A stretch of 64,000 bases of DNA from Bdellovibrionales bacterium (GCA_039808765.1 JBDHTQ010000004.1:4642-68641), one strand, 5' to 3'. Positions 8,358 to 54,278 are shown, counted from the first letter of the stretch. The notes: a model not told the origin generated them from the letters alone. Made by a program: numbers and translations.

Positions 8358-8369
8358 GGAGTATCGACG

Positions 8370-23567: not shown

Positions 23568-26399
23568 TTGGAAGATGATACCCTCCATCCGTGCGGACGA
23601 GGGGGATTGTGGAGAATTGAAATGAGATTTTTTAATCATTTTAAAGCGCGCATACCATCTCTGGGGGGGCAAACGTTAAGATTTCTGTTTGCACCACAAT
23701 TATCTTCAGGTTTTGGCTCAGTCAAAAAAATTGCGGCTTGTTTTGTTTTTATGCTTGCGCAAGTGCTTGGTTCTGCACGTCTTTTGCCAAAATCGCATCG
23801 TTCTCTCAATCCCACCAGCTTGCGTGATGCCCGCTTGGGAGAAATTTTATCACTCGCTTATGTGAACGCCACCAAGCGGGAAACACGCCTTGATCAACGA
23901 TTGGTCTTTGGTGCGGTTTCTACGCTGATGGCGTTGACGGTGATGATGATCGTCAAGATTTTTGTCACTCTTTACATCGGTGTTAGCCACGCGATGACGT
24001 GGACGATTAATTTTAGTTGGGGTGGCTTAAGTTCTGCCGATATTGGTTCTGGTGTCCTGGATATCGGTTCGGGGATTTCTTTAGGCTCATGCTCAGGTCT
24101 AGGGGCATCCACCAATTTGTTTGCTGCGCCGTGCGGCGCGTCCGATATGGCGCAGCAGTGGCTGGCAATGTTTTTCTTGCCCAGTACGACTGTTAGTTGG
24201 AGTAATTCTGTAATGTCCTTGCCCGTTCGTGAAGGGCTATACAGCATGTTTGCATTATATAGCACGGCCATGTTGGTGGTTGCTGGGTTTTTGGTATTGT
24301 ATCATCTGATTACCATTGTGGCGGCGACCGCTCATGAAGGTAAGCTGGGCGGGCGCCAAATGAACCAAGTATGGGCACCAATCCGGCTTGTTTTTGCGAT
24401 TGGGTTGCTGGTTCCGCTAGGGATTGGTAATGGTTTTAATTCCGGGCAAATGATGGTGCTTTATATTACGCAGTGGGGTTCGGCTTTAGCGAGCAATGTG
24501 TGGGCTACGTTTGCGGATACGTTCTCCGACCAGACTGGGGCTTTTGTTATTGCGCCTCCCATGCCGTCAATGGCTCCGGTTTTGAAAGATGCGCTTAAGA
24601 TTCTTACCTGTCAGGCTGGATATAATGTTATGGGGGCAAAATCGGGTGGGTTTGAAGTTGTTATGTCTGAGTGGGTGGCAAATGGCCCTGTCGTAACCAA
24701 ATCTTGGACATATCAGGATGGCTCTGATCGGGAAGTTGGTGTGTGTGGTATCATGGAAATGGTCAACCCTGGTTTTGGCATAAGCGGCGGTAACCTTCTT
24801 TTTCTGAGCAGTGATGGGGCGCTGACAACATCTCAGCTTTTGCGCAAGCAAATAATCGAAGCGCACTTGGCTTTAATGGATGAGGCACTGCAGTCAGGAA
24901 CTGCTGTGGCTCCGACGTGTCAGGCGGATGGCACACCGACGGGCGGAAGCGTCATGGGGGGTGGAACGCTTTGGAGTTTGGCTAACAAATTCTATTGGTC
25001 GGCTAACGGTGGCGAGACGTGTTATCGATTGACAGTGAGTGACCTCAAAGAATTTGGTGATGCGGTTGATACCTATCGTAAAGGTTTAAATGATGCCGTT
25101 GTCGGGATTCTTACCGATGCAGAGGATGAAGCTGCGAACATGGCGGTAAGTGCCCATGAGCGCGGTTGGGTATCTGCAGGTGTTTGGTTTAACTCCATTG
25201 CGCGTATTAATGGTCTTTTGATTGATTTTACGCAAGAGGTTCCGGTTTTACGTCCTACATTAAAAGATCTTTTGGGTGGGGATTTTGCCGATAAAATCAC
25301 TTTGGCACGTCAAAATGTTGATGTCAGCATTGCAGGATTGTCGACCATGGTGGGGGGTAATTACATGAACTCGAGTGAAGCTGCATATGCAACGGCATTG
25401 GGGTCTGGTAGTGCTGGCAGCAGCATGATGGATGCTTATTTGAAAATTTTGGGTATTAATTTATCTTCTGTTGCGGGGGCAACGTCGGGAAGCGACAATG
25501 AGGTGAGCAGTGGAACGACGAGCTCACCGATATTCCGTCTAAATACAGCCAATCCTTTGGCTGAGCTATCAGCCCTCGGCCACCGCGTGATTGATCTGGC
25601 TGTTAAGACAACGCGCAGTCTGACGCAGTGTATGAACACGGCCAAATCGAATCCGGCACAAACAGGCGGCTCTGTTGGTGATCAGAGTGCTTGTAGTGGC
25701 ATCTCTTCGAGTGGTAACACAGGTGAAGGGCTGATTCTGTCAGCGGTGGTTGGTGCGCTTATTTCGGGGGGGGTTACGCTGGCGTTTATGTTGCCGCTCA
25801 TTCCGTTTATTCGCTTCATGTTTGGTATACTGACATGGATATTATCAATCTTTGAAGCAATTATTGCGGTTCCAATTGTTGCTATCGCTCATATTCGCAT
25901 TGATGGTGAAGGGTTGTCTGGACCTTTGGCACGCTCTGCATACATGTTGGTTTTGCAGGTTTTCTTACGTCCCGCCATGATGATTTTTGGGATGATTGTA
26001 GCTTTGCTTATCTTCAACCTGATTGTCATGGCGCTCAATGAATTTTATAGCCTTGCGGTTCAAGGGGTTGAAAACAGCGGTAAGCTGGGCGCGATCAGTG
26101 GCGTTATCTATACAGTCATGTATGCCGCGATGGCGTATGGGTTTGCCAATGCATCCTTTAAGGCCATTGATATGATCCCAAGTCGGGCATTACAGTGGAT
26201 TGGTGGTGGGCAGCAGGCCGGTATGGAGCAGGATATGTTTGTGGTCAATAATGCGGTTTCTCGTGTTGGTGCTGTTGGTCAAAGCTTGTACAGCCCCTAT
26301 GCGGCAATGAACAAAAATCAGGCTGCTGCAATGCATCATGTAGACAGTGCAAGGAGTGGCGCGGTTGCTCCGCGTACCCCGCCGAGTGGTGCGGTTTAA
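23568..26399 (+). CDS. Large polytopic membrane protein, paralogue of 4199-6181; putative DotA/TraY-like (or VirB6/TrbL-like) component, preceded by a 245 bp AT-rich region
   Basis: 943 aa (or about 925 aa from MRFFNHF at 23623). It shares blocks with the first copy: HEGKLGGRQMNQVWAPIRLVFAIGLLVPLGIGNG and LPLIPFIRFMFGILTWILSIFEAIIAVPIVAIAHIR. It has a longer central hydrophilic domain and a C-terminal transmembrane cluster. Confidence 0.4.
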   Translation: MEDDTLHPCGRGGLWRIEMRFFNHFKARIPSLGGQTLRFLFAPQLSSGFGSVKKIAACFVFMLAQVLGSARLLPKSHRSLNPTSLRDARLGEILSLAYVNATKRETRLDQRLVFGAVSTLMALTVMMIVKIFVTLYIGVSHAMTWTINFSWGGLSSADIGSGVLDIGSGISLGSCSGLGASTNLFAAPCGASDMAQQWLAMFFLPSTTVSWSNSVMSLPVREGLYSMFALYSTAMLVVAGFLVLYHLITIVAATAHEGKLGGRQMNQVWAPIRLVFAIGLLVPLGIGNGFNSGQMMVLYITQWGSALASNVWATFADTFSDQTGAFVIAPPMPSMAPVLKDALKILTCQAGYNVMGAKSGGFEVVMSEWVANGPVVTKSWTYQDGSDREVGVCGIMEMVNPGFGISGGNLLFLSSDGALTTSQLLRKQIIEAHLALMDEALQSGTAVAPTCQADGTPTGGSVMGGGTLWSLANKFYWSANGGETCYRLTVSDLKEFGDAVDTYRKGLNDAVVGILTDAEDEAANMAVSAHERGWVSAGVWFNSIARINGLLIDFTQEVPVLRPTLKDLLGGDFADKITLARQNVDVSIAGLSTMVGGNYMNSSEAAYATALGSGSAGSSMMDAYLKILGINLSSVAGATSGSDNEVSSGTTSSPIFRLNTANPLAELSALGHRVIDLAVKTTRSLTQCMNTAKSNPAQTGGSVGDQSACSGISSSGNTGEGLILSAVVGALISGGVTLAFMLPLIPFIRFMFGILTWILSIFEAIIAVPIVAIAHIRIDGEGLSGPLARSAYMLVLQVFLRPAMMIFGMIVALLIFNLIVMALNEFYSLAVQGVENSGKLGAISGVIYTVMYAAMAYGFANASFKAIDMIPSRALQWIGGGQQAGMEQDMFVVNNAVSRVGAVGQSLYSPYAAMNKNQAAAMHHVDSARSGAVAPRTPPSGAV

Positions 26400-37788: not shown

Positions 37789-38304
37789 ATGCGTCACATA
37801 CGATCCGCTCTTTTAGTTTCTCTCGTTTTTTTAAGCGCTTGCGCCACAAAAACGGACCTTCCGCCTGTCGATAAGACCCATGTGGAAGTCACGAATTCCG
37901 GCGCACCGAGCAGCGCTGAAGTGACAGCGCGCTTGGCAGAGGCCGCACAGAGGACCGCCGATGCGGTTGAAAGTTTGGCTTCGATTGAGCAGGCGCGTAC
38001 ACCCGAGCTTTATACGCCCATCGTGGCGGATGCTCCGGCTGAGCTACGTTTGCTGGTAACGATTCAGTGGAACGGTCCATGGGAAAATCTTCTTAAGGTG
38101 ATGGCTGAGCGCGTGAACTATGATTTCCGCATCATCGGCAAGTCGCCTCCCACACCGATTGTGGTGGTGGTTGATGCGCGCCAGCAGCCGTATGTTGATA
38201 TTATGAGAAATATTGGTTTGCAGGCGGCTGGTCGTGCTGATCTGGTTCTCGATTCACGTAACAGAGTGGTGGAAGTGCGCTATGCTCCGGATACCGGCCG
38301 TTAA
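37789..38304 (+). CDS. DotD/TraH-like lipoprotein (type IVB secretion outer-membrane lipoprotein with secretin-N0-like domain)
   Basis: Lipobox FLSAC. It is 171 aa, matching DotD in size. The C-terminal alpha/beta domain reads LLVTIQWNGPWENLLKVMAERVNYDFRIIG...VVVVDARQQPYVDIMRNIGLQAAGRADLVLD. It is the first gene of a DotD-DotC-DotB-IcmT-ordered block. Confidence 0.55.
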   Translation: MRHIRSALLVSLVFLSACATKTDLPPVDKTHVEVTNSGAPSSAEVTARLAEAAQRTADAVESLASIEQARTPELYTPIVADAPAELRLLVTIQWNGPWENLLKVMAERVNYDFRIIGKSPPTPIVVVVDARQQPYVDIMRNIGLQAAGRADLVLDSRNRVVEVRYAPDTGR

Positions 38305-39310
38305 GCGGTCTCTTTCCTTGACGGTTGAAAAAACCATTCTCACCAGCGTAATGGCCAGCGTGATGGTGACCGTGTTGTTGTGCGGTGTGCTTCCGGCCTG
38401 GGCCGATCCCAATGGCGATAAAATGGGGCGTCCTGACCAAATGCGGATGATTGATAATCATGATAGCACCACCTCGGCTGACCCCTACGATACCCCCATT
38501 TTTGTCCCGCAAACAAAGCCGGCTTATGATGAAACGACCCCGCCAGACATCAATGCAATGGTCAACGAACAGGGAAGCGGTTTAACTGAAGCGCAACGTT
38601 CGGCTATGAAAATTCGTGCCGACGCATTACATGAGGCTGCACTGTCATATGGTGCGCGGGGTGGATTGGCGCGTCGTACATGGGAAATTCGCCAAGAATT
38701 AAATCATTCTTCCAATGATTTGGATCGTACTTATAATTTTCGGCAACTTCTGATTTCAGCGCCTTCTGGTTTGTTGATTGAGCCACCGGTTGTAACTGAA
38801 GCGCAAAAGAATGTTATTGTGTCGGGTGATGGCCAGCAGGCTGCAGTTACTGATCAGCTCTTGAGCATTGGTCGCGAGGCAAGAATTGTGACGGCCGCGC
38901 GTGAGTGGCGTACCTATCTTGAGCGTGACTGGGGTCGAGTTGAGGCTCCGCCGGATGTTTTACTTCCCCGCACTGAGCAAGAGCGTTTGGCATGGGCTCA
39001 ATGGGTTGCCCAAGGGTGGGAAGCGGGTTATCATCAAGGGGATGAGATTTTTCAGTCCGACCTTGATCGGCTTGTGCGTGACTATACCGGCATGGTGCGT
39101 TATCGCTGGCTTTTGGCGCAAAACATGATTTCTCCGCCGTTTGCGCTTCAGCAAGATCGGGGCATTACAGGGGGCGGCAACGAAATGCGCATTGGCGATC
39201 GTGCCTTGTCGATCACGGGGCGCTCTCAATTGCAAGCAAAGCCTGAAGTTTGGCAAGCGGTTCCGCGCACACCGTTACGGTCTGCGTCAGGTGGGGCGAA
39301 CGGTGAGTAG
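38281..39310 (+). CDS. DotC/TraI-like protein (type IVB secretion outer-membrane component)
   Basis: WLLAQNMISPPFALQQDRGITGGGNEMRIGDRALSITG and EAALSYGARGGLARRTWEIRQELN match remembered DotC blocks (LLAMNMVSPPYV...GVTGDGSEIHIDDRVLRIT and ETALSVGAQAGLAWRAKIIDEQLN). The start overlaps the dotD-like stop. Confidence 0.7.
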
Positions 39311-40442
39311 TGCAGCTGGAACGAAGCTTCTTCAAATAGAGACGTGGCCGACTGAGCCCCCACGCATTACTGATGACCTTGTTGATGATCTCATCATGTA
39401 TTGCGTTAAAAATCAGGCCAGCGATATTTCGCTGCAGACAGACCGTCAGGCCTATGCTGAAATTTATGGTATTATTTATCCTTTAACCCAGCGCGTGTTG
39501 GATCCTGCCGATTTGAATGCATTTATGACACGCCTGTACGGGGTTGATGCTGCCGCCAAGCTGGCAGCTGCACGCGACCTTGATCTTTCTTATGAAATCA
39601 AGATCGATCGTTTTACGCGTGTGCGTTTTCGCGTCAATATGACGGCGATTCAGAGTAAAGGGCGCGACGCAGTTCAGATTACAATGCGGGTGTTACCCAG
39701 TGTGCCTCCTTCGTTGGTGGATCTTGGTATTGAATCGGAAATTGTTGACAATTTTGCTCCACGCCAGGGATTGGTTTTGGTCACAGGGCCAACAGGTTCG
39801 GGTAAAACGACGTTGCTGGCGGCGGGCATGCGTACCTTGATTGAGCGTGGGTGCGGCAAAATCCTTACCTATGAAGCGCCAATCGAATTTACTTACGATT
39901 CGGTGACCAATCCGCAAAGCTTGGTCGCGCAAACAGAAATTCCCCGGCATTTGCCGAGCTTTGCCGCAGGGGTGCGCAATGCCTTGCGCCGTAAGCCTAA
40001 CATCATTTTGGTGGGTGAATCGCGTGATCGTGAAACGGTTTCTGCGGCGATTGAGGCTGGGCAAACGGGTCATGCTGTGTACACGACCGTTCATACCCTT
40101 GGGGTTGCGGCTACATTGCGTCGTATGGTGTCTGTTTTTGACCCAAACGAGCGTGCCGAGCGCGCTGCCGCTTTGATGGAAACACTGCGCTTGGTCGTTA
40201 CGCAGGCGCTGGTTCCGCGCTTGACGGGTGGGCGCATTGCTGTACGCGAGTGGATGGTTTTTGATGATTCAGTGCGGGAAGAATTGTTGGATATGCCTCA
40301 GGAACGCTGGGCAAACCGCATTCAACAGATGTTACCGGATCGTGGACAAACGATGCAAAAATCGTCTAAAATAGCTTATGAACAAGGTCAAATTGATCGC
40401 CGTTACTACTTGATGTTGGCGCGCGGCAGTATGGATGGATAA
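39303..40442 (+). CDS. DotB/TraJ/PilT-family secretion ATPase
   Basis: Walker A GLVLVTGPTGSGKTTLLAAGMRTL; the Asp box and Walker B IILVGESRD; the His box HAVYTTVHT. The likely GTG start at 39303 overlaps the upstream stop (GTGAGTAG). Length is about 379 aa. Confidence 0.75.
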   Translation: MSSAAGTKLLQIETWPTEPPRITDDLVDDLIMYCVKNQASDISLQTDRQAYAEIYGIIYPLTQRVLDPADLNAFMTRLYGVDAAAKLAAARDLDLSYEIKIDRFTRVRFRVNMTAIQSKGRDAVQITMRVLPSVPPSLVDLGIESEIVDNFAPRQGLVLVTGPTGSGKTTLLAAGMRTLIERGCGKILTYEAPIEFTYDSVTNPQSLVAQTEIPRHLPSFAAGVRNALRRKPNIILVGESRDRETVSAAIEAGQTGHAVYTTVHTLGVAATLRRMVSVFDPNERAERAAALMETLRLVVTQALVPRLTGGRIAVREWMVFDDSVREELLDMPQERWANRIQQMLPDRGQTMQKSSKIAYEQGQIDRRYYLMLARGSMDG

Positions 40443-40481
40443 AGTATCAGTGCGCTTGTTTGATAGAAGAGGAGCTGGCTT

Positions 40482-40781
40482 ATGCAATTAGAACCAAATC
40501 GTTGGCATTGGCGTGACAGCATGCTGCCTGCCCGTTTCTTTATCTTTGACGCGCGTGCTGCTATTTTTATCGTTTTTGTGGTCTTACGTATGGTGAGCCT
40601 ATACACGTGGGGTGCTTTTTTTCTAGCGTTGGTTTTTTTCTACATTCTTGAGCGGCTTGGTTTGACATTTGAGGCTGCCTTGCGACGTATGCGTTCTCTC
40701 CTGACGGGGAAAAAACGACCTGCCTATATTTGGACGTCGACCCGTCGCATGATCGATATGGGGGCGAACCCACTCTCTTAA
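40482..40781 (+). CDS. IcmT/TraK-like small inner-membrane protein
   Basis: 99 aa with two transmembrane segments. The N-terminal WHWRDSMLPARFFIFDARAAIFIVF matches the IcmT/TraK HWRDS...PRFF..D signature. Confidence 0.6.
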   Translation: MQLEPNRWHWRDSMLPARFFIFDARAAIFIVFVVLRMVSLYTWGAFFLALVFFYILERLGLTFEAALRRMRSLLTGKKRPAYIWTSTRRMIDMGANPLS

Positions 40782-40810
40782 ATTACCGATTCGAATTGGG
40801 TAATTTTTTT
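40782..40810 (+). terminator. Candidate intrinsic terminator between the IcmT-like gene and the pil-like operon
   Basis: A stem attacc...ggtaat with an 11 nt loop, followed by tttttt. Confidence 0.4.
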
Positions 40811-40948
40811 CGCGATATCATCTTTACTCGGATTGCCAGAAGGTTAACTTTGTGGCAAACATACCTTCACCGGGGAGAGGCGCGTGTGCTGGGCTCAGTT
40901 CATGCGCACATTGCGTTATGATGTTTCTTCTATAAAAAGGGTGAAAAA

Positions 40949-43435
40949 ATGATGTTGCGCCAAGGCCTCAGAAAATTTTCGTATCAATTCTTGTTGTCGT
41001 CGGTGTTTTTTCTGGCACTTGTGCCTGGCGTTCATGCAGAAGATGCGCGTGCTCCTTTGGCGCGTGCAATTCAGAATATTGTTCCTTCTGGAACCGTGGT
41101 TGTTTATGATCCGGCTGTAAACATTGAGGCGATGGTGGTTGCCCCGGAAGGTAAGGGTGAATGGCTCGCACAGGTGCAACAGATTGCTGATCAAGCGCAT
41201 CTCTCTGTTAAGCAGGAAGATAGTATTCTTCACATTAGCAACAGCGATCAAGATGGAGCCACAGCGGCTTCGCCGGATGTCGTGACCACGCCGGTAGCGC
41301 TTTCCTCTGCAGGGGATGAAGAAGAGAAGTGGGTTGATCAAGGCAAAACGCTCCCGCAAGACACTGCGCCATTAAGCGTTGTCGATGTGCCTGAAACAGC
41401 CACAACGCAAAAGGCGACAGAACAAAAAGTTGCAATGGCTCAAGAGGCCATCACAGAGTCGGTTGGGGCTTCTGCAAACAGTGCCGTAACATCTGGAACG
41501 ATACCGGCCTCGCCGATGCTGACGGAATCTTCAACGCCGGGCGACACTTCTCATGCGAAGGGGGTTGTTCTTGCTTCTAGCAAAAACTTGCCCCAGCAAC
41601 CTGAGCCTTCAGCCGTGACGGCGACGACACCCGACAGCGCGCCAGCAGTTAGTGTGGATTCAGCGGGGGGTGTGGCGATTAACGGTCAACCTGAGACCGC
41701 GCCGATTATTGCATCACCTAACGCGTCAGAGGCGTCACCCGTTGCAACGGGAATGGCTGATACACTTCGTCAAGCCGCGCAAACAGATATTAAGCCTACA
41801 GAAACTTCACCTGTAGTCCAGCCTGTGGCAAGTAATGAAGCAGAAAGCACGCCGCGCACGACAGGGCAAAGCGAGGCAGTATCTGATTCTTCGATTATGC
41901 CGCTTACACCAGCTTCTGAAAAATCAGCCCTTGTTAAGAAAGACTGGGTTGTATCGCCTGTAAAAAAACCCGCTAAACCGACCGTTAACCCGGGCAGTGT
42001 TTCTGTTCAAGCCGCAGATGCTACCGTGAATACACCAGCCTCGGCCCGTTTGGTGAGCGGTACGGTTATGGGAACACCGCGCTGGACAGGTCACCAGGAA
42101 AATCAAGGAAAATTGCGCGATTCCTCTGTCGAAACTTTGTCAGCGGCGGCCCCTGTTCGTGCGTCTGTTGCTGTGCCAGCCCCTGCAATTGCAACCCCAC
42201 CAGCATCCCCAGTTTCATTGACTCTCGATCAAGATGCATCAATGAATGTGCCAGCTCCGATTGGTGTTCGGCAGGATCGCTTAACTGAAACCCCCCTTCC
42301 CAGTAAGGATGCCACACCTGCCCCAAAGGTGGATAAGGTCTTGAGCAAAGCCGTTGAGATTTCCGCCGCTTCAGAAAAATCGTCTACCATGATGACCAAA
42401 GAAGTTGCTCCTGCCCCTGTTGCACACAATGTGACGGGTAATTCATCGTTGGCGCAAGGTACAGTCATGGGGGTTCCGCAATATGATGCGCGTCGTGAAG
42501 CGCGACCCACCAACACCTCGGCTGGAGCAGCTTTGAATGCCGGATCAGTTGGGGGTGTATCGCTTACTTCTGTTTCATCAGCGGGATCGATGCAGGCTGT
42601 GGGCATGATGTCGTTGGGGGGGGCAATTTCAAAACTCAAACCTGCGAAATATCATGTTGTCTATGCTTCCGATGTTGATCCAAGTGTTTCTGTCAATGTT
42701 CCTATGCAGGGGACGTGGCAGGAAAAACTTTCGGCAATTGCTGTGGCCGCTTCCGTGCGGATTGAAGATTCACAAGGGACGCTGACGATTAGGCGCGCTG
42801 TTGAACAAACGAATGGTGCGCCTGTGGTTGCAGCGCCGACTGCATCCCCTGTACATGTATCTATACCCTCATCTGCACCTTTAACAAATAGTGTTCGTGC
42901 TGCGCCAGCAACAGTTGCGCCAGCTGCAGGAAACCCTACAGCGCCCGCTGAAGGGGAACATGAGACCGTGATTCAAACAACCGAAACGGTTGTTGAAGAC
43001 AATGTTTCATCGGACACAACATCTTCTTCATCCCCTCCTCCTGTTGCTCCAACGCCAGAACAGGCAGCGCAAGCAAATGCACAACCCGTTTCTCCACCAA
43101 TGAAAGAGCCTGTGGGGAGTAACTTCGATCCAAATCAGGCCGAGCGTCCTGTTGCCGCACGAGGATTGTGGCAAGCCGAACGTGGTTCGTCTTTGCGTGA
43201 TGTTTTACAATCTTGGTGTGATCGTGCCGGTGTGCAACTGGTTTGGTCGAGTCAATTCGATTTTCCGCTTCAAGCCACAGTTTCTTTGGACGATACGTTT
43301 GAAGGGGCTGTCCGTACGTTGCTGGGGGGATTTTCCTCTGCTTCGCCGCGTCCAGTTGCTCAGCTTCATCGGCAAGCAAATTTTGGCACACGTGTTTTGA
43401 TCGTTCAGACACGCGGTAATCGTTACGGGGAATAA
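40949..43435 (+). CDS. Giant PilL-like secreted protein: signal peptide, roughly 600 aa Ala/Pro/Ser/Thr/Val-rich low-complexity spacer, C-terminal TcpQ-like domain
   Basis: Signal peptide MMLRQGLRKFSYQFLLSSVFFLALVPGVHA. The C-terminal ARGLWQAERGSSLRDVLQSWCDRAGVQLVWSSQFDFPLQATVSLDDTFEGAVRTLL resembles TcpQ/PilL secretin-accessory domains. It sits immediately upstream of the secretin, 4 bp away. Confidence 0.45.
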   Translation: MMLRQGLRKFSYQFLLSSVFFLALVPGVHAEDARAPLARAIQNIVPSGTVVVYDPAVNIEAMVVAPEGKGEWLAQVQQIADQAHLSVKQEDSILHISNSDQDGATAASPDVVTTPVALSSAGDEEEKWVDQGKTLPQDTAPLSVVDVPETATTQKATEQKVAMAQEAITESVGASANSAVTSGTIPASPMLTESSTPGDTSHAKGVVLASSKNLPQQPEPSAVTATTPDSAPAVSVDSAGGVAINGQPETAPIIASPNASEASPVATGMADTLRQAAQTDIKPTETSPVVQPVASNEAESTPRTTGQSEAVSDSSIMPLTPASEKSALVKKDWVVSPVKKPAKPTVNPGSVSVQAADATVNTPASARLVSGTVMGTPRWTGHQENQGKLRDSSVETLSAAAPVRASVAVPAPAIATPPASPVSLTLDQDASMNVPAPIGVRQDRLTETPLPSKDATPAPKVDKVLSKAVEISAASEKSSTMMTKEVAPAPVAHNVTGNSSLAQGTVMGVPQYDARREARPTNTSAGAALNAGSVGGVSLTSVSSAGSMQAVGMMSLGGAISKLKPAKYHVVYASDVDPSVSVNVPMQGTWQEKLSAIAVAASVRIEDSQGTLTIRRAVEQTNGAPVVAAPTASPVHVSIPSSAPLTNSVRAAPATVAPAAGNPTAPAEGEHETVIQTTETVVEDNVSSDTTSSSSPPPVAPTPEQAAQANAQPVSPPMKEPVGSNFDPNQAERPVAARGLWQAERGSSLRDVLQSWCDRAGVQLVWSSQFDFPLQATVSLDDTFEGAVRTLLGGFSSASPRPVAQLHRQANFGTRVLIVQTRGNRYGE

Positions 43436-43439
43436 AGCC

Positions 43440-45038
43440 ATGCAGCAGGCGGTTTCGCGGTACTTTTTGTGTGGGTTGCTTCTTGTAAGCGGTTGCGCAG
43501 ATGAGGCGATAAAAAAAGAAATTGATCAACGCTACGATGTTGCCCAATCGCGCCTTGAAACGGCAAAAAGTCCTGCTGCTGATCGTCGGAGTGATCCGCT
43601 TGAAGTTTCTGACAGTGTTTGGCTTGGTGACTCCGCCATTGCTTTAAAATCCGGTGATCCTCTTCCCGCAAAATGGGTTGGCGAAGGTGCGATTGCTTTG
43701 CGGTCTGATACACCGCTTACGCTCAATCAAATTGTCAGTTTGCTTTCTACACAGACACAGATACCTTTTCGTTTGATCGCCAATGCCCAACAGATGTCGG
43801 GTGGGGCACCTGCTGCTGCAAGTCCTATTGCCAATCCTGCTTCGGGAAATGCGGCAACATCCCCTGTGGAAGATGGAATGACCTTCTCTTATGAGGGAAG
43901 TTTGTCAGGATTATTAGATCTGGTGTGCAGCTATTTTAATGTAAATTGGTATTATAAAAATGGCACGGTTAACATCAGTCGTTACGAAACTCGCACCTTT
44001 GTGCTTGATGCCTTGCCTGGTACGATCACGATGGCCGCACCAGATGACACAGCTGCAACCGGCGATGCCGCGTCTACCGCAACGGCCCAACCTTTGGCTA
44101 ATGCCAGTATTGATATCTGGGAAGATATCAACCGTATCCTGACAAACCTCGTTGGCACAGAGGGAACGTTAACCATTTCACAATCGAGCGGCACCATCGT
44201 TGTGAGCACAACACGTGATCGAATGGAACGGATCGCTGATTTTATTCAGGAAGAAAACCAGAGACTAAGCCGCCAAGTAGCTATTACGATTGAAATGTAT
44301 AATGTGACCATTACAGACCAACAAGAGTATGCACTGGATTTGCAACCGCAAATTAATACGGGGGGATGGTTTGGTAAATGGTTGAATATTTCAAACCTCA
44401 GTGGTGTCACGATCAACCAAAGTGATATTGCTGGGGCTAACTTATCGATTGGATTGATTAATCCCCCTGGTCTTTCTGGGAGTACTTCTGTTTTTCAAGC
44501 ACTAAACACGCTGGGTAAAACATCCCGCATTGCTCAAATTCCTTTGACGACGCTTAATAATCGCCCGGCCACGCAACGAATTGCAACGGATGAGGCATAT
44601 GTTTCGGGAACATCTGTCACGATTGATGCAAACTCGGGCGCAACAACAACAGAAATCACAACAGATAAAGTTGTTTCAGGTATCTCGGTGTCTGTATTGC
44701 CACGATTGATGAGCGATGGGCGTATGCTTTTGCAATATGCCTTAGCCCAAGGGGCACGCATTAAGTTTGATCCCTTTTTCTCGCCTGACGGAACGGCCTC
44801 TGTCCAGTTGCCGCAAACTCAAGGGGTGTCATTCAGTCAGCAAGTTATGATGAAAAATGGCTCGACACTGATTTTAGCCGGGTTTGATCAAAGCGACATG
44901 AATGACAGTCGAAGTTCTCCTCTTCGCGGTTTTGGCTTTTTCCTGGGCGGAACAAAAACAAACAATCAAGGGCGGAATTTGGTGGTGATTGCCATTACTC
45001 CGCGCGAAATCGTGGTCAATAATCCGGAGGCTTCGTAA
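43440..45038 (+). CDS. Type IVb pilus-type lipoprotein secretin (PilN/BfpB/TcpC-like)
   Basis: Lipobox LLLVSGC. The C-terminal secretin domain contains GSTLILAGFDQSD...RNLVVIAITPREIV. Length is 532 aa. Confidence 0.7.
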   Translation: MQQAVSRYFLCGLLLVSGCADEAIKKEIDQRYDVAQSRLETAKSPAADRRSDPLEVSDSVWLGDSAIALKSGDPLPAKWVGEGAIALRSDTPLTLNQIVSLLSTQTQIPFRLIANAQQMSGGAPAAASPIANPASGNAATSPVEDGMTFSYEGSLSGLLDLVCSYFNVNWYYKNGTVNISRYETRTFVLDALPGTITMAAPDDTAATGDAASTATAQPLANASIDIWEDINRILTNLVGTEGTLTISQSSGTIVVSTTRDRMERIADFIQEENQRLSRQVAITIEMYNVTITDQQEYALDLQPQINTGGWFGKWLNISNLSGVTINQSDIAGANLSIGLINPPGLSGSTSVFQALNTLGKTSRIAQIPLTTLNNRPATQRIATDEAYVSGTSVTIDANSGATTTEITTDKVVSGISVSVLPRLMSDGRMLLQYALAQGARIKFDPFFSPDGTASVQLPQTQGVSFSQQVMMKNGSTLILAGFDQSDMNDSRSSPLRGFGFFLGGTKTNNQGRNLVVIAITPREIVVNNPEAS

Positions 45039-45041
45039 ACC

Positions 45042-46358
45042 ATGGTGGCCGGCGTCATCTCCGTCGGCGGTAAAGGCTATGCCGTCGGGCTATACTGGCA
45101 GGTTTCAGATACTCCTAATGCTGCCAAATCAGCGCGTGTAGCTGCGCGCCAGCCTGGTGCTTTTGCTGATTTTTTCTGCGTACGTCCCGGGAATGCCAAA
45201 GGTCGTGCGCCCCAGTTTGGTTTGGGTGAGCAGCGTTTGGGCCATAAATGGAACATGCCTTCTGCCGCTGCATCGATGGCTAATGTTCAGCCGGGGTCTT
45301 GGGCTGGGGTTTTTGTTCAACCTGAGGGGGCTTGGTTTATTGAAGTCCGCGATGACTTGATTGCGCCCGAAGGAGATGTGATGTTCGCCGACGAAGCCGA
45401 GGCAATGTCAAGGCTTCAAGAAACGAGTGCGCATGGTGGTCTAGAGAGAATTTTTGCGCCTGCTGAATGGGCGATTCCCGGTGCTGAAAGCCGTTCGCTG
45501 TCTTTGCTTCTCTCTGGTAAAGCCGTCGCACGGTTGCAGCCCGTACGGTTGCCAACCAAGGTTATTAAAGGAATTGTTGGCGGTGTTGTCATTCTGGCGA
45601 TAATGATTGTTGGGCTGGTTTTTTGGCTAAACCAGCAACAAGCGGCTCGGGATCAGCTCGCTATTGAAGAAATTGAGCGGCAGGCCGCAGAGACAAAAAA
45701 GCGGCAAGAGCTTCAAAAAGCTGAAGAAGAACGTAAAAAAGCAGAAGAGGCTGAAAAAAACAGGCAGGCAGAAGAAGAAAAAAATCGCCGTGCCACGCAA
45801 GAAGCGCTGACTGCTCCGATTTATGGTCGGGTATGGGAAAATACGCCTAAGCCATTAACGTGGTTAGCGGCATGCCGAGATACCATGGATAAAGTACAAA
45901 TTTCACCTCTGGGATGGTCATTGGTGAGTGTTGTTTGCCATGGAAATCAGGTGGATGCGTCATGGTCACGGCGTAACGGTCCGGCTATGGTGCCGCGCGA
46001 TGCCTTGGTTGATGAAGCGATGAAATCGGCCACGGTTAGCTACAATCTGCCAACATTGAGTCCGCGCGGAACAGAATTGCTATGGCCTGCAGATGCTATC
46101 ATGCTTTATACTCTTAATAATGACTGGTCAGCGAGCCTCTCGTATGTCAAAGATCCAGATCTGCCGCCTCTGCCCAACGGTCAGCGCTTGCCGCCACCGC
46201 CATGGGCCAAGCGTAAGGTAGACTGGGAGGTGCCTTTGTCTCCGTGGACGATGAAGGGGCCGTTTGTTGACTTGCCGGGACTGGTACTGGACTCGTTGAC
46301 GTGGAATCAAAACGGTACATGGAAAATAGAAGGGCTGCTGTATGAACAACGCAAGTAA
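45042..46358 (+). CDS. PilO-like bitopic type IVb pilus biogenesis protein
   Basis: 438 aa. An N-terminal cytoplasmic domain of about 190 aa is followed by a single transmembrane segment (IVGGVVILAIMIVGLVFWL), a Lys/Glu-rich coiled coil (KKRQELQKAEEERKKAEEAEKNRQAEEEKNRR) and a periplasmic domain. Its position between the secretin and PilP matches R64 pilO. Confidence 0.45.
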   Translation: MVAGVISVGGKGYAVGLYWQVSDTPNAAKSARVAARQPGAFADFFCVRPGNAKGRAPQFGLGEQRLGHKWNMPSAAASMANVQPGSWAGVFVQPEGAWFIEVRDDLIAPEGDVMFADEAEAMSRLQETSAHGGLERIFAPAEWAIPGAESRSLSLLLSGKAVARLQPVRLPTKVIKGIVGGVVILAIMIVGLVFWLNQQQAARDQLAIEEIERQAAETKKRQELQKAEEERKKAEEAEKNRQAEEEKNRRATQEALTAPIYGRVWENTPKPLTWLAACRDTMDKVQISPLGWSLVSVVCHGNQVDASWSRRNGPAMVPRDALVDEAMKSATVSYNLPTLSPRGTELLWPADAIMLYTLNNDWSASLSYVKDPDLPPLPNGQRLPPPPWAKRKVDWEVPLSPWTMKGPFVDLPGLVLDSLTWNQNGTWKIEGLLYEQRK

Positions 46359-47193
46359 TGGTCAAAGAAAAGCCCGACGTGTAAGAATGGCAACACGATT
46401 CATTGCTGGTTTTGCGCTTTGGGGATTCGCCTTTGCGGGGCTGTATTCTGCGCCCACACATGCTACGTCTGTGCCCCCGCAAACCGATTCATCTGCTGTT
46501 GGTTCGCCGTTGTCCTCTCCGCCTGTGGTTGAGGTTTTGCGTGCGCCAGAGGTGACCCCGCCTCAATCTGTGGTGGCCGAGCAGCCTGGACAAAGTCTTG
46601 TAACACCTGCTGCATCCGGTACATCGACAAAAGATGAAGCGTCGTCCGAATCATCAAAAGATGCAGGATCTCAAGCTGAGGATGCTGAGAGTGCGAATGA
46701 TATTAATCCTGATAAAATTTTGAACACGTTACGTCAGTCTAATGGGCCGCCGCTCACGCTTTCACAGTTGGCTGCGATCAATGATGCACTTAAAAAGATG
46801 GAGTATGTAAAGGACATTGAAACGAAGATTCAAAGTATGCAGATGAGTGCGAACACTTCTTCCTCTGTTATTGGTCTTGGTACACCTGGGTCTTCAGTCA
46901 TCTCTCCTATGGGGGGCGCCCCTTTTCCTTCTCCTTCGGGCAATTCAGCGCCCTCTACTGATCAGCCTGTTGTTTTGCGTGTGTATGCTCTGCAAGGCGT
47001 GTTTAAAGCTGTCGTTCTCTTCAATAAACAGCAGCAAACTGTTGAGGTGGGGGATAGCATTGGGGGGCTGAAGGTAACTGATATTTCACTTGCCGGAGTT
47101 CGGGTAAATCAGGCATTGGGTGGTGTGAGCACCCTACCGTTTGCGACAGTAAATAGTTTACAAAACGTTACCGTTGCCGTTCCAAGAAAATGA
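46342..47193 (+). CDS. PilP-like protein (secretin-interacting C-terminal beta domain)
   Basis: N-terminal transmembrane/signal-like segment FIAGFALWGFAFAGLY. A Ser/Pro-rich linker follows. The C-terminal PVVLRVYALQGVFKAVVLFNKQQQTVEVGDSIGGLKVTDISLAGVRVN is a PilP/GspC-HR-like motif. Confidence 0.5.
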   Translation: MNNASNGQRKARRVRMATRFIAGFALWGFAFAGLYSAPTHATSVPPQTDSSAVGSPLSSPPVVEVLRAPEVTPPQSVVAEQPGQSLVTPAASGTSTKDEASSESSKDAGSQAEDAESANDINPDKILNTLRQSNGPPLTLSQLAAINDALKKMEYVKDIETKIQSMQMSANTSSSVIGLGTPGSSVISPMGGAPFPSPSGNSAPSTDQPVVLRVYALQGVFKAVVLFNKQQQTVEVGDSIGGLKVTDISLAGVRVNQALGGVSTLPFATVNSLQNVTVAVPRK

Positions 47194-47368
47194 TAATTGT
47201 TGTTTTATCAAACGAACAATTTAAATTATTTGAATGAGTTGCAAACATTCTTGAATCTTTTTAGTCTTCCTTAACCCTAACCAGTGTTAACTAGACCATG
47301 TGCCTTCACGCCTTGTGTTCAACTCAGAAACACATGTGAGTGGCAGGAGAGTGGATTAGGGATAGATC

Positions 47369-49084
47369 GTGGAACCTTTATCTTCAACCAGTAGCTCGGG
47401 AACTGACGCATCAAGCGGTAGACCGGGACGCATCCCTTTTAGTGGAAAAGTTTTAACCGCTGAAGATGGGCCGTTGCGTATTGCTGCTGAGTCACGAAAG
47501 TTGTGTGCGTTGTTTGATAATGGTATGTGGTTGGTTTCTGAAAGCTATAAAAACTCTCCGTTTGTGACCTCGGTGGCGGCGCAAGCGCGTCGTCAGGGGC
47601 ATAAGGTCAGTGATGCGAATTACGTCACACCGGATATTATACAACAGGCCTATAACTATGCACAGCGCGATACACAGGTTTCTGTCATTGATGAGAACGT
47701 TGTTCGTCGCCGTATTAAAGAGGTTTTTACAAAGGCGCGTGAAGTTGGTGCGAATGACGTGCATATGGAAGTGGCTAACGGCCGCACGAAAATTGAGTTT
47801 CGCATCGATGGTAGCCTTGTTGTCTCTGACACACTGACAGAAAAGGAAGGTGAAACGATGATGGCGGCCATCTGGTCGCACTCTGCAGCGCAATCCGGCG
47901 CGACGCCTAACTGGTTAGAGCCGATGGCAGCGATGTTGCGCGCAGGTCAAACCGGCAAAGATGCCATGGAGCTTCCTGAAGGATTGCTCGGTGTTCGATG
48001 TCAATGGATCCCCATTGTTGATGGGGGTCGTTATCTCGTTATGCGCATGCATTATGATAACATGCATATCCAGGGCGGTAGTCACGATATGGATGTGGAT
48101 ACGCTTGGTTTTACACCCGAGCAAACGTCATTGGTGCGCCATCTTCGTCGCCTGCCGGGCGGTATGCGCATTGTGGCGGGGCCGGTGAACCAAGGTAAAA
48201 CCACAACACTGCGCGTGATTCTTAATCGCCGTATGGCCGAGACCAACTATCGTCTTAACTGCTTGCTGATTGAAGACCCGCCTGAAGGGGGGATTATCGG
48301 AGCGAGACAAATCGGTGTGTCGGCTTCACATGATGAAGATATGCGCGAACGGGTTTTTATGGAAGTTCAGCGCTCGGCCCTTCGCCTTGACCCGGATATC
48401 ATCATGCTGGGTGAAATCCGTGACCTGCAAACTGCAGGTTTTGCTTATAAAATGGCCCTAACAGGTCGTCAGGTCTATACCACTATTCACGCTTATTCTG
48501 CTCTCGCTATTCCGCAACGTTTGCGAGATATCGGTATTCAGCCATATCTTGTTTACGATCACAATTTGTTGCGCGGGTTGGTGACACAGCGACTGGTACG
48601 TACATTATGTTCGCACTGCAAGGTGCCTTTGGTGGAGGCTATGCGCCAGCGTCCGCAACTTGCGGCGTTGACGATACGATTGCGTGCTGCGGTGGCGTTG
48701 ATGGATGCCGAAACGCGCGCCCGTCAGGACGGTGTTGGTCTTGATGAAATAAAGTTGCTAGAGCCTGATCTTTCGGATGTTTTTGTTGCAAGCGGCAAGG
48801 GATGCGAGCACTGCATCGGGGGGCATTCCGGGCGCACGGTCTTGGCTGAGGTTATTGAAACAGACAGTCGCCTGATGGCGCTTTTACGTGATGATAAGAT
48901 GGAACAAGCACGCGCCTATTGGCTTTCGCACAATGGGCTTGGGGGCATTTCGATGCTTTGGCATGCCTTGGGCAAGGTTGTTGTGGGCAAGGTGAGTCCC
49001 GAGGATGCTGAGTTTGAGCTGGGACCATTGGCCAGAGAGCGTGATCTGCGCGAGTTTGAAGAACGCTCCGGCAATAATTACTGA
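47369..49084 (+). CDS. GspE-family secretion/pilus assembly ATPase (PilQ-like of type IVb pili)
   Basis: Walker A VAGPVNQGKTTTLRV; CLLIEDPPE; His box TTIHAYSA; tetra-Cys motif CSHCK...CEHC. Length 571 aa. Confidence 0.8.
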   Translation: MEPLSSTSSSGTDASSGRPGRIPFSGKVLTAEDGPLRIAAESRKLCALFDNGMWLVSESYKNSPFVTSVAAQARRQGHKVSDANYVTPDIIQQAYNYAQRDTQVSVIDENVVRRRIKEVFTKAREVGANDVHMEVANGRTKIEFRIDGSLVVSDTLTEKEGETMMAAIWSHSAAQSGATPNWLEPMAAMLRAGQTGKDAMELPEGLLGVRCQWIPIVDGGRYLVMRMHYDNMHIQGGSHDMDVDTLGFTPEQTSLVRHLRRLPGGMRIVAGPVNQGKTTTLRVILNRRMAETNYRLNCLLIEDPPEGGIIGARQIGVSASHDEDMRERVFMEVQRSALRLDPDIIMLGEIRDLQTAGFAYKMALTGRQVYTTIHAYSALAIPQRLRDIGIQPYLVYDHNLLRGLVTQRLVRTLCSHCKVPLVEAMRQRPQLAALTIRLRAAVALMDAETRARQDGVGLDEIKLLEPDLSDVFVASGKGCEHCIGGHSGRTVLAEVIETDSRLMALLRDDKMEQARAYWLSHNGLGGISMLWHALGKVVVGKVSPEDAEFELGPLARERDLREFEERSGNNY

Positions 49085-49143
49085 TTTTTTCGCGTTGAAA
49101 TAACGTGTGTTAACAAAGTGAATGATGACAGAAAGACAAAACG

Positions 49144-50205
49144 ATGTTTGATTCATTTACACTGTCGATGGCCCAGTACAAAATGCGGCGAAGCAAAAAG
49201 CAACGCTTTCGCATTTACCGCAAACTGCAAGGCATGATGGAGATGAACGAGCCGTTACCGACGGCGTTGGATCGGTTGTGGCGTAACGTTTCGGAAGATG
49301 GGCAAAAACCAAATCGTCCTGCTGCATTGGCTGTGCAGCAATGGTTAGAGCGTAGCCGTCAGGGTAAAGAACTCGCCGACATGCTTGATGGTTGGATTCC
49401 ACAACGTGAATTAATGCTTTTGCGTGCTGGTGAAGAATCGGGAAACGTGGCCAAAGCCATTGGTTCGATTATGTCGGTGGATGAAGCCGCTGAAAAAATG
49501 CGCCGCGCGATTATGAGTGCGGTTACCTATCCGGTTTTTATTTTTCTTTTGATGTCAGGTATTATGTGGATGTTCGGTGTTAACCTGATTGAGCCGATGC
49601 GCAAAAATGCTCCCCCTGCTGTTTTTGCTAAAATGCAAGGGATTGCAGCTGTGTCCGACTTTGTTCGCCATAGTGGATTCCTGACGTTGTGCCTGATCGG
49701 TGGCTTTGTGGCGCTCATCATCTTCAGCTTGCCGCGCTGGAAAGGGAAGCTGCGCGCGCGTTTTGATATGTTTCCACCTTACGCATGGTATCGTGTTTGG
49801 CAGGGAAGTGCGTTTTTGCTCTCAATGTCGGCTTTGCTCAGTGCACAAGTGCCATTACGCAAATGTTTTGAAATTTTATTGGTTAACGCAAAGCCATGGT
49901 TAGCTGAACGACTGGAATCGGCTCGGCAGGAAATTTTGCGTGGTCGTAATCTTGGTGAAGCGTTACGCGTGCAGGGACTGAATTTTCCCGATCCGCAGCT
50001 GGCACGCGATCTTGAAATTCTTTCCGAACGATCCGATATTGCCCGCACGCTTGAGATTCTCGTGCGCGACTGGCTGGAAGAGCAAACCCGAGCCCTTAAC
50101 GGGCAGGCGGCCTTGGTTCGGACCGTTGGAATGGGGCTGGTCGGGGGCTTTATTGCGTGGGCGATGATGTCCATCGTCAGCATTAGCCAAGCCGTGGCGC
50201 AATAG
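49144..50205 (+). CDS. GspF-family inner-membrane platform protein (PilR-like)
   Basis: 353 aa. It has two GspF-like repeats with three transmembrane segments. The GspF-type N-terminus reads KKQRFRIYRKLQGMMEMNEPLPTAL. Confidence 0.75.
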   Translation: MFDSFTLSMAQYKMRRSKKQRFRIYRKLQGMMEMNEPLPTALDRLWRNVSEDGQKPNRPAALAVQQWLERSRQGKELADMLDGWIPQRELMLLRAGEESGNVAKAIGSIMSVDEAAEKMRRAIMSAVTYPVFIFLLMSGIMWMFGVNLIEPMRKNAPPAVFAKMQGIAAVSDFVRHSGFLTLCLIGGFVALIIFSLPRWKGKLRARFDMFPPYAWYRVWQGSAFLLSMSALLSAQVPLRKCFEILLVNAKPWLAERLESARQEILRGRNLGEALRVQGLNFPDPQLARDLEILSERSDIARTLEILVRDWLEEQTRALNGQAALVRTVGMGLVGGFIAWAMMSIVSISQAVAQ

Positions 50206-53870: not shown

Positions 53871-54278
53871 ATGCGATTAGGCGAACAGCTCATTAAAAAC
53901 GGTTCGTTGAAACCACACCAACTGCATGCGGCACTGTGTGTGCAAAAAAAGTATCCCTTTCGGTTAGGAAAAATTTTGCATCAACTGGGTATGATTGGAA
54001 AAGGAGCCTTATTAAAGGCTATTTTAATGCAAAAATTTTCAGGTTATTTTTCGCGTTCGCATACCCCGCCTGTCTTGAATTATGTTGCGCGGGGAGAGCT
54101 TTTGCTTGAGCAATTGAATCGCAAAAATCAAGATATTAAATGTGAGATCAAGAGCGGCAACCCACAGCATCCGCGCCAGTATCGTGGCGAGTGGTGCAGT
54201 TATAAAACGAAACATCTTGGCAAAGTGATTGATAAAGATGATGTCGTGGCGCGCAATCTGGAAACGCACAACTTTTAG
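53871..54278 (+). CDS. Hypothetical small protein with a T2SSE_N/MshEN-like N-terminal motif
   Basis: LGEQLIKNGSLKPHQLHAALCVQKKYPFRLGKILHQLGMIGKGALLKAIL follows the LGE.L...G.I...QL..AL..Q...G.RLGEIL..LG.I pattern of GspE N-terminal domains. RBS aaaggag. Confidence 0.35.
   Translation: MRLGEQLIKNGSLKPHQLHAALCVQKKYPFRLGKILHQLGMIGKGALLKAILMQKFSGYFSRSHTPPVLNYVARGELLLEQLNRKNQDIKCEIKSGNPQHPRQYRGEWCSYKTKHLGKVIDKDDVVARNLETHNF

Follow-up and report, generated by a model that had tools for sequence, protein, structure and literature searches.

What could bring a set of Dot/Icm-type genes and a set of type IVb pilus genes together in a single stretch of a chromosome, surrounded by housekeeping genes? 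The locus occupies positions 37789-50205 (plus strand) of the window, by which we mean the whole 64-kb stretch of DNA analysed. Its ten open reading frames, all of them intact, run in the order dotD-dotC-dotB-icmT and then pilL-like-pilN-pilO2-pilP-pilQ-pilR (Table 1), with uvrD and a phytase-like gene upstream and yfgM-bamB-der downstream. We consider it probable that the ten genes make up one locus of a chromosomal, vertically inherited type IVB (Dot/Icm-like, I-type) secretion system with an accessory type IVb thin pilus, carried by an uncultured Micavibrio-like alphaproteobacterium. The case is built on the gene identities, the synteny, the strong conservation, a MAG that also has DotO, and the larger gene complement of relatives. 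That the products assemble into a single apparatus, what it does, and which cells it targets are inferred from these.

Table 1. Genes of the dot-pil locus, the hairpin within it and the two dotA paralogues of the same window.
Feature	Coordinates	Strand	Evidence	Identity to R64
DotD/TraH-family outer-membrane lipoprotein	37789..38304	+	lipobox LSAC; PF16816, 110 bits	
DotC/TraI-family protein	38282..39310	+	PF16932, 262 bits	TraI, 31%
DotB/TraJ PilT-like hexameric ATPase	39303..40442	+	TIGR02524, 384 bits; 79-89% identity to relatives	TraJ, 32%
IcmT/TraK small inner-membrane protein	40482..40781	+	NF038220, 75 bits vs cut-off 40	
A+T-rich hairpin + T-run	40780..40811	+	in 167-nt gap 3' of icmT; RNAfold -6.8 kcal/mol	
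PilL-like secretin partner, 828 aa	40949..43435	+	C-terminal TcpQ domain, PF10671, residues 741-811	
PilN/BfpB/TcpC-type lipoprotein secretin	43440..45038	+	lipobox VSGC; TIGR02520, 222 bits; PF00263	PilN, 26%
PilO2-type type IVb pilus assembly protein	45042..46358	+	PF06864 (PAP_PilO), 84 bits; 56-62% identity to relatives	
PilP-like protein, conserved domain C-terminal	46342..47193	+	TIGR03021, 26.5 bits, below cut-off	
PilQ-type GspE-family assembly ATPase	47369..49084	+	PF00437 (T2SSE), 186 bits	PilQ, 33%
PilR-type GspF-family platform protein	49144..50205	+	PF00482 (T2SSF), 92 bits	PilR, 28%
DotA/TraY-family polytopic membrane protein, paralogue 1	4199..6181	+	TIGR04346, 217 bits vs cut-off 100	
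DotA/TraY-family protein, paralogue 2	23568..26399	+	TIGR04346, 312 bits, residues 199-879	

The locus had been recognized in a first-pass annotation made from the sequence alone, and much of that description has stood. The ten gene assignments were confirmed by profile searches (PilP weakly by HMM, but rescued by hhalign), BLASTP against R64, which it had proposed, returned the matches listed in Table 1, and both the housekeeping setting (uvrD plus a coupled gene on one side, yfgM-bamB-der on the other) and a dot block directly 5' of a type IVb pil block, pilin-less in cis, are as it described them. Within the dot block, DotD (102 bits on NF033882, below the equivalog cut-off of that model) is 68-82% identical to its orthologues in four relatives (loci L001, L003, L007, and L008), and DotC is 41-42% identical to the DotC of Bosea and Pseudomonas aeruginosa plasmids. 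The start of dotC is likely the ATG at 38282, which overlaps dotD as in L001, and alignment with the same relative sets the start of dotB at the GTG at 39303. DotB scores higher on the DotB model TIGR02524 than on those for TraJ (246 bits) or PilT (232 bits), and both its Walker A (GPTGSGKT) and Walker B (ILVGESRD) motifs are readable in the translation, while the counterparts of icmT in relatives carry PF28014 (IcmT_2).

Of the features expected of a type IVb pilus, the pil block contains a lipoprotein secretin with a TcpQ partner, PilO2, PilP, an ATPase for assembly, and a platform of the GspF type. The PilL-like protein starts with a signal peptide, followed by a long Pro/Ala/Ser/Thr-rich linker that leads to the TcpQ domain. 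Its conservation in relatives, where it is 412 to 680 aa long, is confined to the C-terminus, the part that also matches R64 PilL (E 0.007). PilN scores below the 287.65-bit equivalog cut-off of TIGR02520 and is 26-30% identical to plasmid-borne PilN and BfpB. For PilP, a profile of six orthologues aligned to R64 PilP by hhalign with 91% probability (E 1e-6), and the PilQ translation has Walker A and B together with CxxC...CxxC zinc motifs.

The genes are less evenly packed than the uniform 0-5 bp spacing first reported, with distances that go from a 23-nt overlap (dotD/dotC) to a 175-nt gap (pilP to pilQ). In between, dotC and dotB overlap by 8 nt and pilO and pilP by 17 nt, and the remaining gaps measure 39 nt (dotB to icmT), 167 nt (icmT to pilL), 4 nt (pilL to pilN), 3 nt (pilN to pilO), and 59 nt (pilQ to pilR). 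A gap of 156-334 nt between icmT and pilL is kept in relatives. The terminator that had been proposed after icmT does exist as a hairpin, but a weak one that the terminator scan did not call, and it is at best a weak candidate for a terminator or operon boundary.

The locus is not the only part of the system in the window. Two DotA/TraY genes, overlooked in the first annotation, are encoded upstream of it. The first is a solitary gene just 5' of rodA, whose full-length product shares 38% identity with the DotA that adjoins the module in L003. The second matches Legionella DotA (PDB 9ngy, 94 bits) and also R64 TraY; its DotA core begins at about 24147, and the N-terminal extension may instead represent a small gene of its own. 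Other parts are missing in cis, as had been claimed. Searches with R64 TraU, TraN, TraO, TraP, TraM, TrbA-C, and NikB found no homologue in the 64-kb window, in agreement with the reported lack of DotH/TraN, DotG/TraO, DotF/TraP, and DotO/TraU and of a relaxase and coupling protein (NikB, TrbC). The lack of a major pilin and of a lytic transglycosylase was likewise supported: no homologue of the relatives' pilin (PilS) and SLT genes turned up in the window, a motif scan found no prepilin-like N-terminus in it, and PilR abuts yfgM where relatives carry PilS. The separate PilT-like ATPase of relatives has no counterpart in the window either. As for a prepilin peptidase, R64 PilU was unmatched in the relatives' loci and no such family appeared among the window ORFs scanned with Pfam and NCBIfam; the gene may lie elsewhere in the genome. 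The absence of a pilin where relatives have one means that the pilus part could be non-functional or fibre-less in this species.

Part of the remaining system was found elsewhere in the genome. MAG GCA_039808745.1 encodes a PilR (P0241) 100% identical to that of the window and reproduces the PilQ-PilR-YfgM-BamB-Der junction, and it also encodes DotO/IcmB (P0137). Each of these two proteins is recorded on a 238,603-bp contig, presumably one and the same 238.6-kb contig. Among DotO, DotH, DotG, DotI, DotL, pilin, and prepilin peptidase, only DotO was located in the genome of the window organism. The identification of the DotO/IcmB orthologues is supported by matches to R64 TraU with E values of 1e-104 to 1e-108, and in close relatives dotO is solitary among housekeeping genes. 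Of the features expected of a type IVB system, DotC, DotD, DotB, DotA, and IcmT are encoded in the window and DotO in the MAG with the identical PilR. Only in relatives were DotG, DotH, and DotI seen adjoining the module, as were a pilin and a PilT-like ATPase. Within this lineage the system is spread over the chromosome among housekeeping genes.

The relatives also show how stable the locus is. The same module order after uvrD and the phytase-like gene is common to the four relatives named above, with UvrD 63-72% identical to that of the window. In these four genomes the conservation of the module proteins equals or exceeds that of UvrD (DotB 79-89%, PilQ 83-87%, and PilR 80-84%). In Micavibrio sp. 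NAT141 the order is again the same; there an SLT gene lies upstream of the module, and genes for a PilS pilin and a PilV-like protein lie downstream. DotC and DotB are 62-63% identical to those of the window but the pil proteins only 27-32%, which suggests that a different pil lineage has been kept at the same position. The ten genes of Micavibrio sp. UBA2400 are followed by PilS, an unknown gene, and a PilT-like ATPase, beyond which lies a convergent DotO preceded by DotG (TrbI), DotH, and four DotI (PF03743, PF12293, and four copies of PF11393, respectively). The arrangement, presented at first as unlike the R64 and Legionella layouts, recurs in every relative examined and also on a known plasmid (see below). 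Nor are Dot/Icm genes unusual in Alphaproteobacteria, as had been thought: searches returned about 1,900 DotC and 2,880 IcmB homologues, alphaproteobacterial MAGs account for many of the best 120, and I-type plasmids are present in Acetobacteraceae, Roseomonas, and Bosea.

This degree of conservation bears on the idea that the locus is the decaying leftover of a plasmid or of an integrated conjugative element, the latter already raised in the first annotation. Its layout is common to an MPF_I plasmid, and the absence in cis of a pilin, of SLT and the PilT-like ATPase, and of further tra genes would fit such a decay. However, the ten reading frames are intact with their motifs preserved, the chromosomal position is unchanged in relatives down to 63% UvrD identity, DotB, PilQ, and PilR surpass UvrD in conservation, the module proteins as a whole being conserved at least as well, and other genes of the system are retained elsewhere. 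Marks of mobility are also lacking: no integrase or relaxase appeared in Pfam and NCBIfam scans of the window, which contains no tRNA (the lack of an integrase or tRNA boundary in cis had been correctly noted) and no flanking or att-like repeats, and its GC content is flat at about 0.50 with no shift at the module. A degraded element is contradicted by the conservation and the synteny, and we regard it as highly improbable.

A second alternative is that DotD, DotC, DotB, and IcmT join directly with PilN, PilL, PilO, PilP, PilQ, and PilR in a single secretin-based apparatus that does not need the remaining type IVB secretion system; DotD might, for example, serve as a pilotin or as a secretin partner of the N0-like kind, with DotB as the retraction ATPase. 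The fold of DotD is like the N0 domain of secretins and DotB resembles PilT (PMC2951367), the window is without the separate PilT-like ATPase of relatives, and the dot block is joined to the pil block in every relative examined, including NAT141 with its apparently different pil lineage. On the other hand, the lineage has retained DotO, DotA, DotG, DotH, and DotI, and a minimal machine lacking DotO, DotH, and DotG, as first suggested, is hard to reconcile with DotO in the MAG with the identical PilR, with DotO, DotG, DotH, and DotI abutting the module in UBA2400, and with two DotA in the window itself. Besides, the same adjacency is found on a conjugative-type MPF_I plasmid with a full type IVB gene set, which indicates that it was inherited from an ordinary I-type layout, and the two blocks lie apart on a Bosea plasmid and on R64. 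Since known plasmids already show this gene order, it does not define a new minimal machine, and an independent hybrid seems to us unlikely. As a weaker corollary, the persistence of the dotDCB-icmT/pil fusion despite the differing pil lineage may reflect a direct physical coupling of DotC/DotD with the PilN secretin.

[quoted passage not shown] The PilN secretin, along with PilL, PilO, PilP, PilQ, and PilR, would assemble the type IVb pilus, which might hold the target cell for substrate delivery like the R64 thin pilus. The cargo could in principle be DNA, the system being then a chromosomal R64-like conjugative one, as the closest characterized traHIJK plus thin pilus systems are conjugative plasmids. 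Yet R64 TrbC (coupling protein) and NikB (relaxase) found no match in the window or in any of the relatives' loci examined, there was no oriT-type accessory gene in them either, and genes scattered singly among housekeeping genes are atypical of mobile conjugation modules. Moreover, pT4SSi were detected in seven Micavibrionales genomes, and MacSyFinder classed these Micavibrionales systems as relaxase-less pT4SSi (PMC9418006). We give DNA transfer little credence. With no relaxase seen and the genes dispersed and domesticated, the cargo is more likely protein, destined for prey bacteria or eukaryotic hosts, and the secretion system probably serves to deliver effectors, on contact, to the cells of prey or host. 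A bolder and much more tentative possibility is that the dispersed Dot/Icm-like system and the type IVb pilus are the contact-dependent attack or feeding apparatus of Micavibrio-type epibiotic predators, in which the pilus would attach to prey and draw it in and effectors would be injected by the secretion system.

Among known systems, the closest in layout is that of the MPF_I plasmid of P. aeruginosa AR_0111 (NZ_CP032256.1), with collinear DotD, DotC, DotB, IcmT, TcpQ/PilL, PilN, PilO2, PilP, PilQ, and PilR; nine of the ten window proteins match it in order at 25-43% identity. It differs in that parM and another gene intervene between icmT and pilL, and in that its pilR is still followed by genes for the pilin, the PilT-like ATPase, and PilV, whereas the window copy ends at pilR. 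Its DotI-DotH-DotG-IcmG genes are about 12 kb away, while the window copy is chromosomal with the rest of the system dispersed. The claim that plasmids do not have this layout holds for R64 but is wrong for other MPF_I plasmids. IncI1 R64 does have TraH/I/J/K, equivalent to DotD/C/B/IcmT, alongside PilL/N/O/P/Q/R, and its thin pilus serves the T4SS by stabilizing cell contact (PMC6232867). However, R64 is conjugative, its pil operon comes first, the shufflon, rci, and traEFG separate pil from traHIJK, and PilM, PilS, PilT, PilU, PilV, and the relaxase NikB are present. The Legionella Dot/Icm system shares homologues of DotA, DotB, DotC, DotD, IcmT, and DotO, a chromosomal location, and the lack of a visible relaxase, but it is organized in two compact regions and has no type IVb pilus block linked to them; in the present system single genes are dispersed, dotDCB-icmT is fused to pil, and no effectors or IcmS/W chaperones were identified. 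Finally, the kib type IVB system of Pseudomonas putida IsoF kills bacteria by contact (PMC9519443). The 67-kb genomic island on which it resides carries an integrase and has a lower GC content, no pilus genes are mentioned in its description (PMC9519443), and experiments have demonstrated what kib does whereas the function proposed here is deduced, but for a lineage named after a predatory genus kib is a plausible functional analogue.

The ten gene assignments of the dot-pil module were each upheld by profile searches (see the table), and the first-pass description of it as traHIJK-like genes joined to a pil set is correct. All ten ORFs are intact and run in one direction, with intact Walker motifs in the translations of both ATPases. 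BLASTP against the IncI1 plasmid R64 gave identities of 31% for TraI, 32% for TraJ, 26% for PilN, 33% for PilQ, and 28% for PilR, together with weak matches for PilO and the C-terminus of PilL, while a profile of six PilP orthologues aligned with R64 PilP at an hhalign probability of 91% (E 1e-6). The PilL-like protein ranges from 412 to 828 aa across the window and the relatives' loci L001, L003, and L007–L009, because a low-complexity linker rich in Pro, Ala, Ser, and Thr expands; conservation is confined to the last ~90 residues, and the Micavibrio sp. NAT141 orthologue carries an additional STN (secretin/TonB N-terminal) domain.

Features in the window, with position, strand, and supporting evidence
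Feature	Position	Strand	Evidence or description
DotA/TraY paralogue 1	4199-6181	+	TIGR04346, 217 bits
DotA/TraY paralogue 2 (dotA-2)	23568-26399	+	TIGR04346, 312 bits
dotA-2 N-terminal extension	23655-23972	+	
153-aa ORF after dotA-2	26445-26906	+	weak paralogue of the dotA-2 extension, 27% over 106 aa, E about 2e-8
Ten-gene module	37789-50205	+	
DotD		+	PF16816, 110 bits; lipobox LSAC in translation
DotC/TraI	from ATG 38282	+	PF16932, 262 bits
DotB	from GTG 39303	+	TIGR02524, 384 bits, above TraJ (246) and PilT (232)
IcmT/TraK		+	NF038220, 75 bits (cut-off 40)
PilL-like, 828 aa	40949-43435	+	C-terminal TcpQ domain the sole recognisable part
PilN-family secretin		+	TIGR02520, 222 bits; lipobox VSGC in translation
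PilO2		+	PF06864
PilP		+	weak profile score, 26.5 bits
PilQ		+	GspE-family ATPase
PilR		+	GspF-family platform protein
135-aa ORF, three genes 3' of module	53871-54278	+	MshE-type c-di-GMP-binding N-terminal motif; NF053729, 37.6 bits (cut-off 38)
142-aa HNH-endonuclease-like ORF	58491-58919	+	weak Cas9/IscB HNH-region matches, best E 2e-10

The uniform spacing of 0–5 bp described at first does not hold, as gaps of 39, 167, 175, and 59 nt follow dotB, icmT, pilP, and pilQ, respectively. The starts of dotC, which overlaps dotD by 23 nt, and of dotB were set by alignment to the closest relative. The candidate terminator 3' of icmT does consist of an A+T-rich hairpin (−6.8 kcal/mol) followed by a T-run, but it was not called by a terminator scan; a gap at this position is retained in relatives. 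The flanks are as annotated, with uvrD and a phytase-like gene on the 5' side and yfgM-bamB-der on the 3' side; obg-proB-proA and grpE lie farther upstream, and dnaN, recF, and gyrB place the window near the replication origin. The MshE-type N-terminal domain is normally carried by T2SS/T4P ATPases, and the motif in the 135-aa ORF appears free-standing.

Two DotA/TraY-family genes within the window had been overlooked, each solitary amid housekeeping genes. R64 TraY matches both, and the dotA-2 product matches Legionella DotA (PDB 9ngy). The two paralogues are ~39% identical to each other, in two blocks, and one of them lies immediately 5' of rodA, the usual site of mrdA. The 153-aa ORF following dotA-2 had no match in Pfam and NCBIfam; possibly both it and the dotA-2 extension represent small membrane proteins associated with DotA, and the extension could be a gene of its own.

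DotA aside, the first-pass list of components not present in cis stands for these 64 kb as far as the searches covered it. Neither R64 TraU, TraN, TraO, TraP, TraM, TraW, TrbA-C, NikB, nor TraE/F matched the window at E ≤ 0.01, and the relatives' pilin, SLT, PilT-like ATPase, and DotO have no counterpart in it. Of the missing I-type components, IcmB (P0137, locus L015) is encoded in MAG GCA_039808745.1. The PilR of this MAG (P0241) is 100% identical to the window PilR, and its contig (L019) has the same PilQ-PilR-YfgM-BamB-Der junction; P0241 and P0137 are each also recorded on a 238,603-bp contig. The genome of the window organism therefore has DotO, which escaped the first finding because of the window size. 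Regarding the pilus, a motif scan of the window for prepilin-like N-termini returned false positives alone, such as transmembrane segments, and pilin and prepilin peptidase genes were not found for this organism in the data scanned. PilR abuts yfgM at the spot that pilS takes up in relatives, and in the window's species the pilus part may therefore depend on genes elsewhere or be altered.

A search of the protein collection with DotC gave ~1,900 homologues, the top 120 sharing 48% identity or more, many of them from MAGs named Alphaproteobacteria, Micavibrio sp., or Rhodospirillales; a profile search of genome contigs with the PilN alignment gave three loci only. NCBI taxonomy places Micavibrio under Bdellovibrionota/Pseudobdellovibrionaceae, hence the misleading "Bdellovibrionales" names on proteins of this lineage's MAGs, the genus being alphaproteobacterial by genome phylogeny (PMC3189940). 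The synteny check showed the ten-gene order in the relatives' loci as well, following uvrD and the phytase-like gene in L001 (DotC 79% identical) and L003 (66%), and the same context recurs in L007 and L008, from MAGs named Micavibrio sp. In the latter two, pilR is followed by a PilS pilin (PF08805), one or two unknown genes, a PilT-like ATPase, and a large convergent gene, DotO/IcmB by its match to R64 TraU (tblastn, E 4e-91); the L008 homologue was missed by a PDB sequence search and gave just a faint VirB4 match with NCBIfam. When that contig is extended (L013, from the relative Micavibrio sp. UBA2400), the DotO facing the pil block is seen to be preceded by four copies of DotI/IcmL, then DotH/IcmK, DotG with a TrbI domain, and four unknowns; R64 TraM, TraN, and TraO match these genes, and the whole region in this relative is a roughly 35-kb T4BSS-plus-pilus cluster. 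Neither the L013 unknowns between DotG and DotO nor the 198-aa gene that follows the pilin gene in relatives matched Pfam or NCBIfam.

Arrangements differ among other relatives. In L014, from the L003 relative, a motA/motB (ExbB/OmpA-type) pair (6865-8578) occupies the pilQ/pilR position, with two unknowns and then DotO behind it; the explanation is either that the pil motor genes were relocated or that a proton-motive stator pair is tied to the system. DotO is solitary in L016 and L020, amid two-component, flagellar, and mre/mrdA genes, and in the latter, from a close relative, it adjoins mrdA-mreDCB. A conserved, unannotated gene of 229–232 aa lies directly 5' of DotO/IcmB (L013, 9243-9932; L014, 9247-9945; L016, 9221-9916), keeping its place even where DotO is solitary, and is probably an unrecognised T4BSS component.

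Compared with the orthologues in L001, L003, L007, and L008, the window proteins are strongly conserved, with identities of 79–89% for DotB, 83–87% for PilQ, 80–84% for PilR, 68–82% for DotD, and 66–79% for DotC, against 63–72% for UvrD and 43–54% for the phytase-like neighbour. The module therefore diverges in step with the backbone and is under strong constraint, as judged from protein identities, synonymous sites being saturated at these divergences; this is the opposite of what would be expected of a decaying element, which leaves the proposal of a degraded integrated conjugative element unsupported. No tRNA was found in the window, no GC shift across it, and no direct repeats flanking the module. 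In NAT141 (L005/L006/L009) DsbG-like, unknown, and SLT genes lie upstream of the module, and downstream of it come a PilS pilin, an unknown of 677 aa, and a PilV-like protein whose N-terminus is of prepilin type; DotC and DotB remain 62–63% identical to those of the window and PilN, PilQ, and PilR only 27–32%, pointing to a different pil lineage at the same position. This pattern is the best argument for selection on dot-pil adjacency, without demonstrating that the two sets are physically coupled.

The other proposal, a repurposed minimal envelope-spanning machine, is likewise unsupported, given that the window itself contains DotA, that the same MAG encodes DotO, and that relatives have a fuller set. 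We consider it likely that the module belongs to a T4BSS with a type IVb pilus that is dispersed over the chromosome of a Micavibrio-like alphaproteobacterium. By analogy with Dot/Icm and R64, DotC and DotD would build the outer-membrane core together with DotH and DotG, DotB would cycle on DotO, and DotA would form the central channel; a type IVb pilus securing target-cell contact would be assembled by the PilN secretin together with PilL, PilO, PilP, PilQ, and PilR. With no relaxase in the window or the relatives' loci that were read, and with the genes spread out, the system would more likely serve protein delivery to prey bacteria or a eukaryotic host than conjugation. Contact-dependent killing of bacteria by a T4BSS has been described (PMC9519443).

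A T4BSS with a linked type IVb pilus is widespread and strongly conserved in the alphaproteobacterial lineage that NCBI names Micavibrio, where it appears to be vertically inherited. The gene dispersal is unusual, with dotA (in two copies) and dotO solitary amid cell-shape, flagellar, and replication genes, and such systems look incomplete when reading is limited to one window. In the genome paper on M. aeruginosavorus (PMC3189940), no type III or IV system was reported, and a "type II" system was described as incomplete. If cultured Micavibrio has the same system, it becomes a testable candidate for the mechanism of epibiotic predation. We suspect that the incomplete "type II" system of M. 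aeruginosavorus may be the dot-pil cluster. A literature search (Micavibrio and Dot/Icm) found no description of the cluster in this lineage, the sole mention being one sentence stating that MacSyFinder detected pT4SSi in seven genomes of marine Micavibrionales (PMC9418006). The value lies in an uncharacterised, widespread system of a predatory lineage; its architecture and machine class are not new. DotD is secretin-N0-like, DotB PilT-like, and DotC/DotD pilotin-like for DotH (PMC2951367), and a pil operon plus traHIJK-type operons have been described in pYR4, pADAP, and R64 (PMC6232867).

I-type plasmids occur commonly in Acetobacteraceae, Roseomonas, and Bosea as well; in Bosea pANAM02 the dot and pil blocks are about 400 kb apart. 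The first-pass statement that the layout is not that of IncI plasmids is correct for R64, which reads, in transcription direction, pilI-V, shufflon/rci, traE-F-G, traH-I-J-K, nuc, sog, traL-Y, but the order is shared by the Pseudomonas aeruginosa MPF_I plasmid NZ_CP032256. There, DotD-DotC-DotB-IcmT-ParM-hyp-TcpQ-PilN-PilO2-PilP-ATPase-PilR-pilin-ATPase-PilV follow one another, with DotI-DotH-DotG-IcmG about 12 kb upstream, and nine of the ten window proteins match collinearly (25–43% identity), so the "hybrid" order is a normal layout in one I-type branch.
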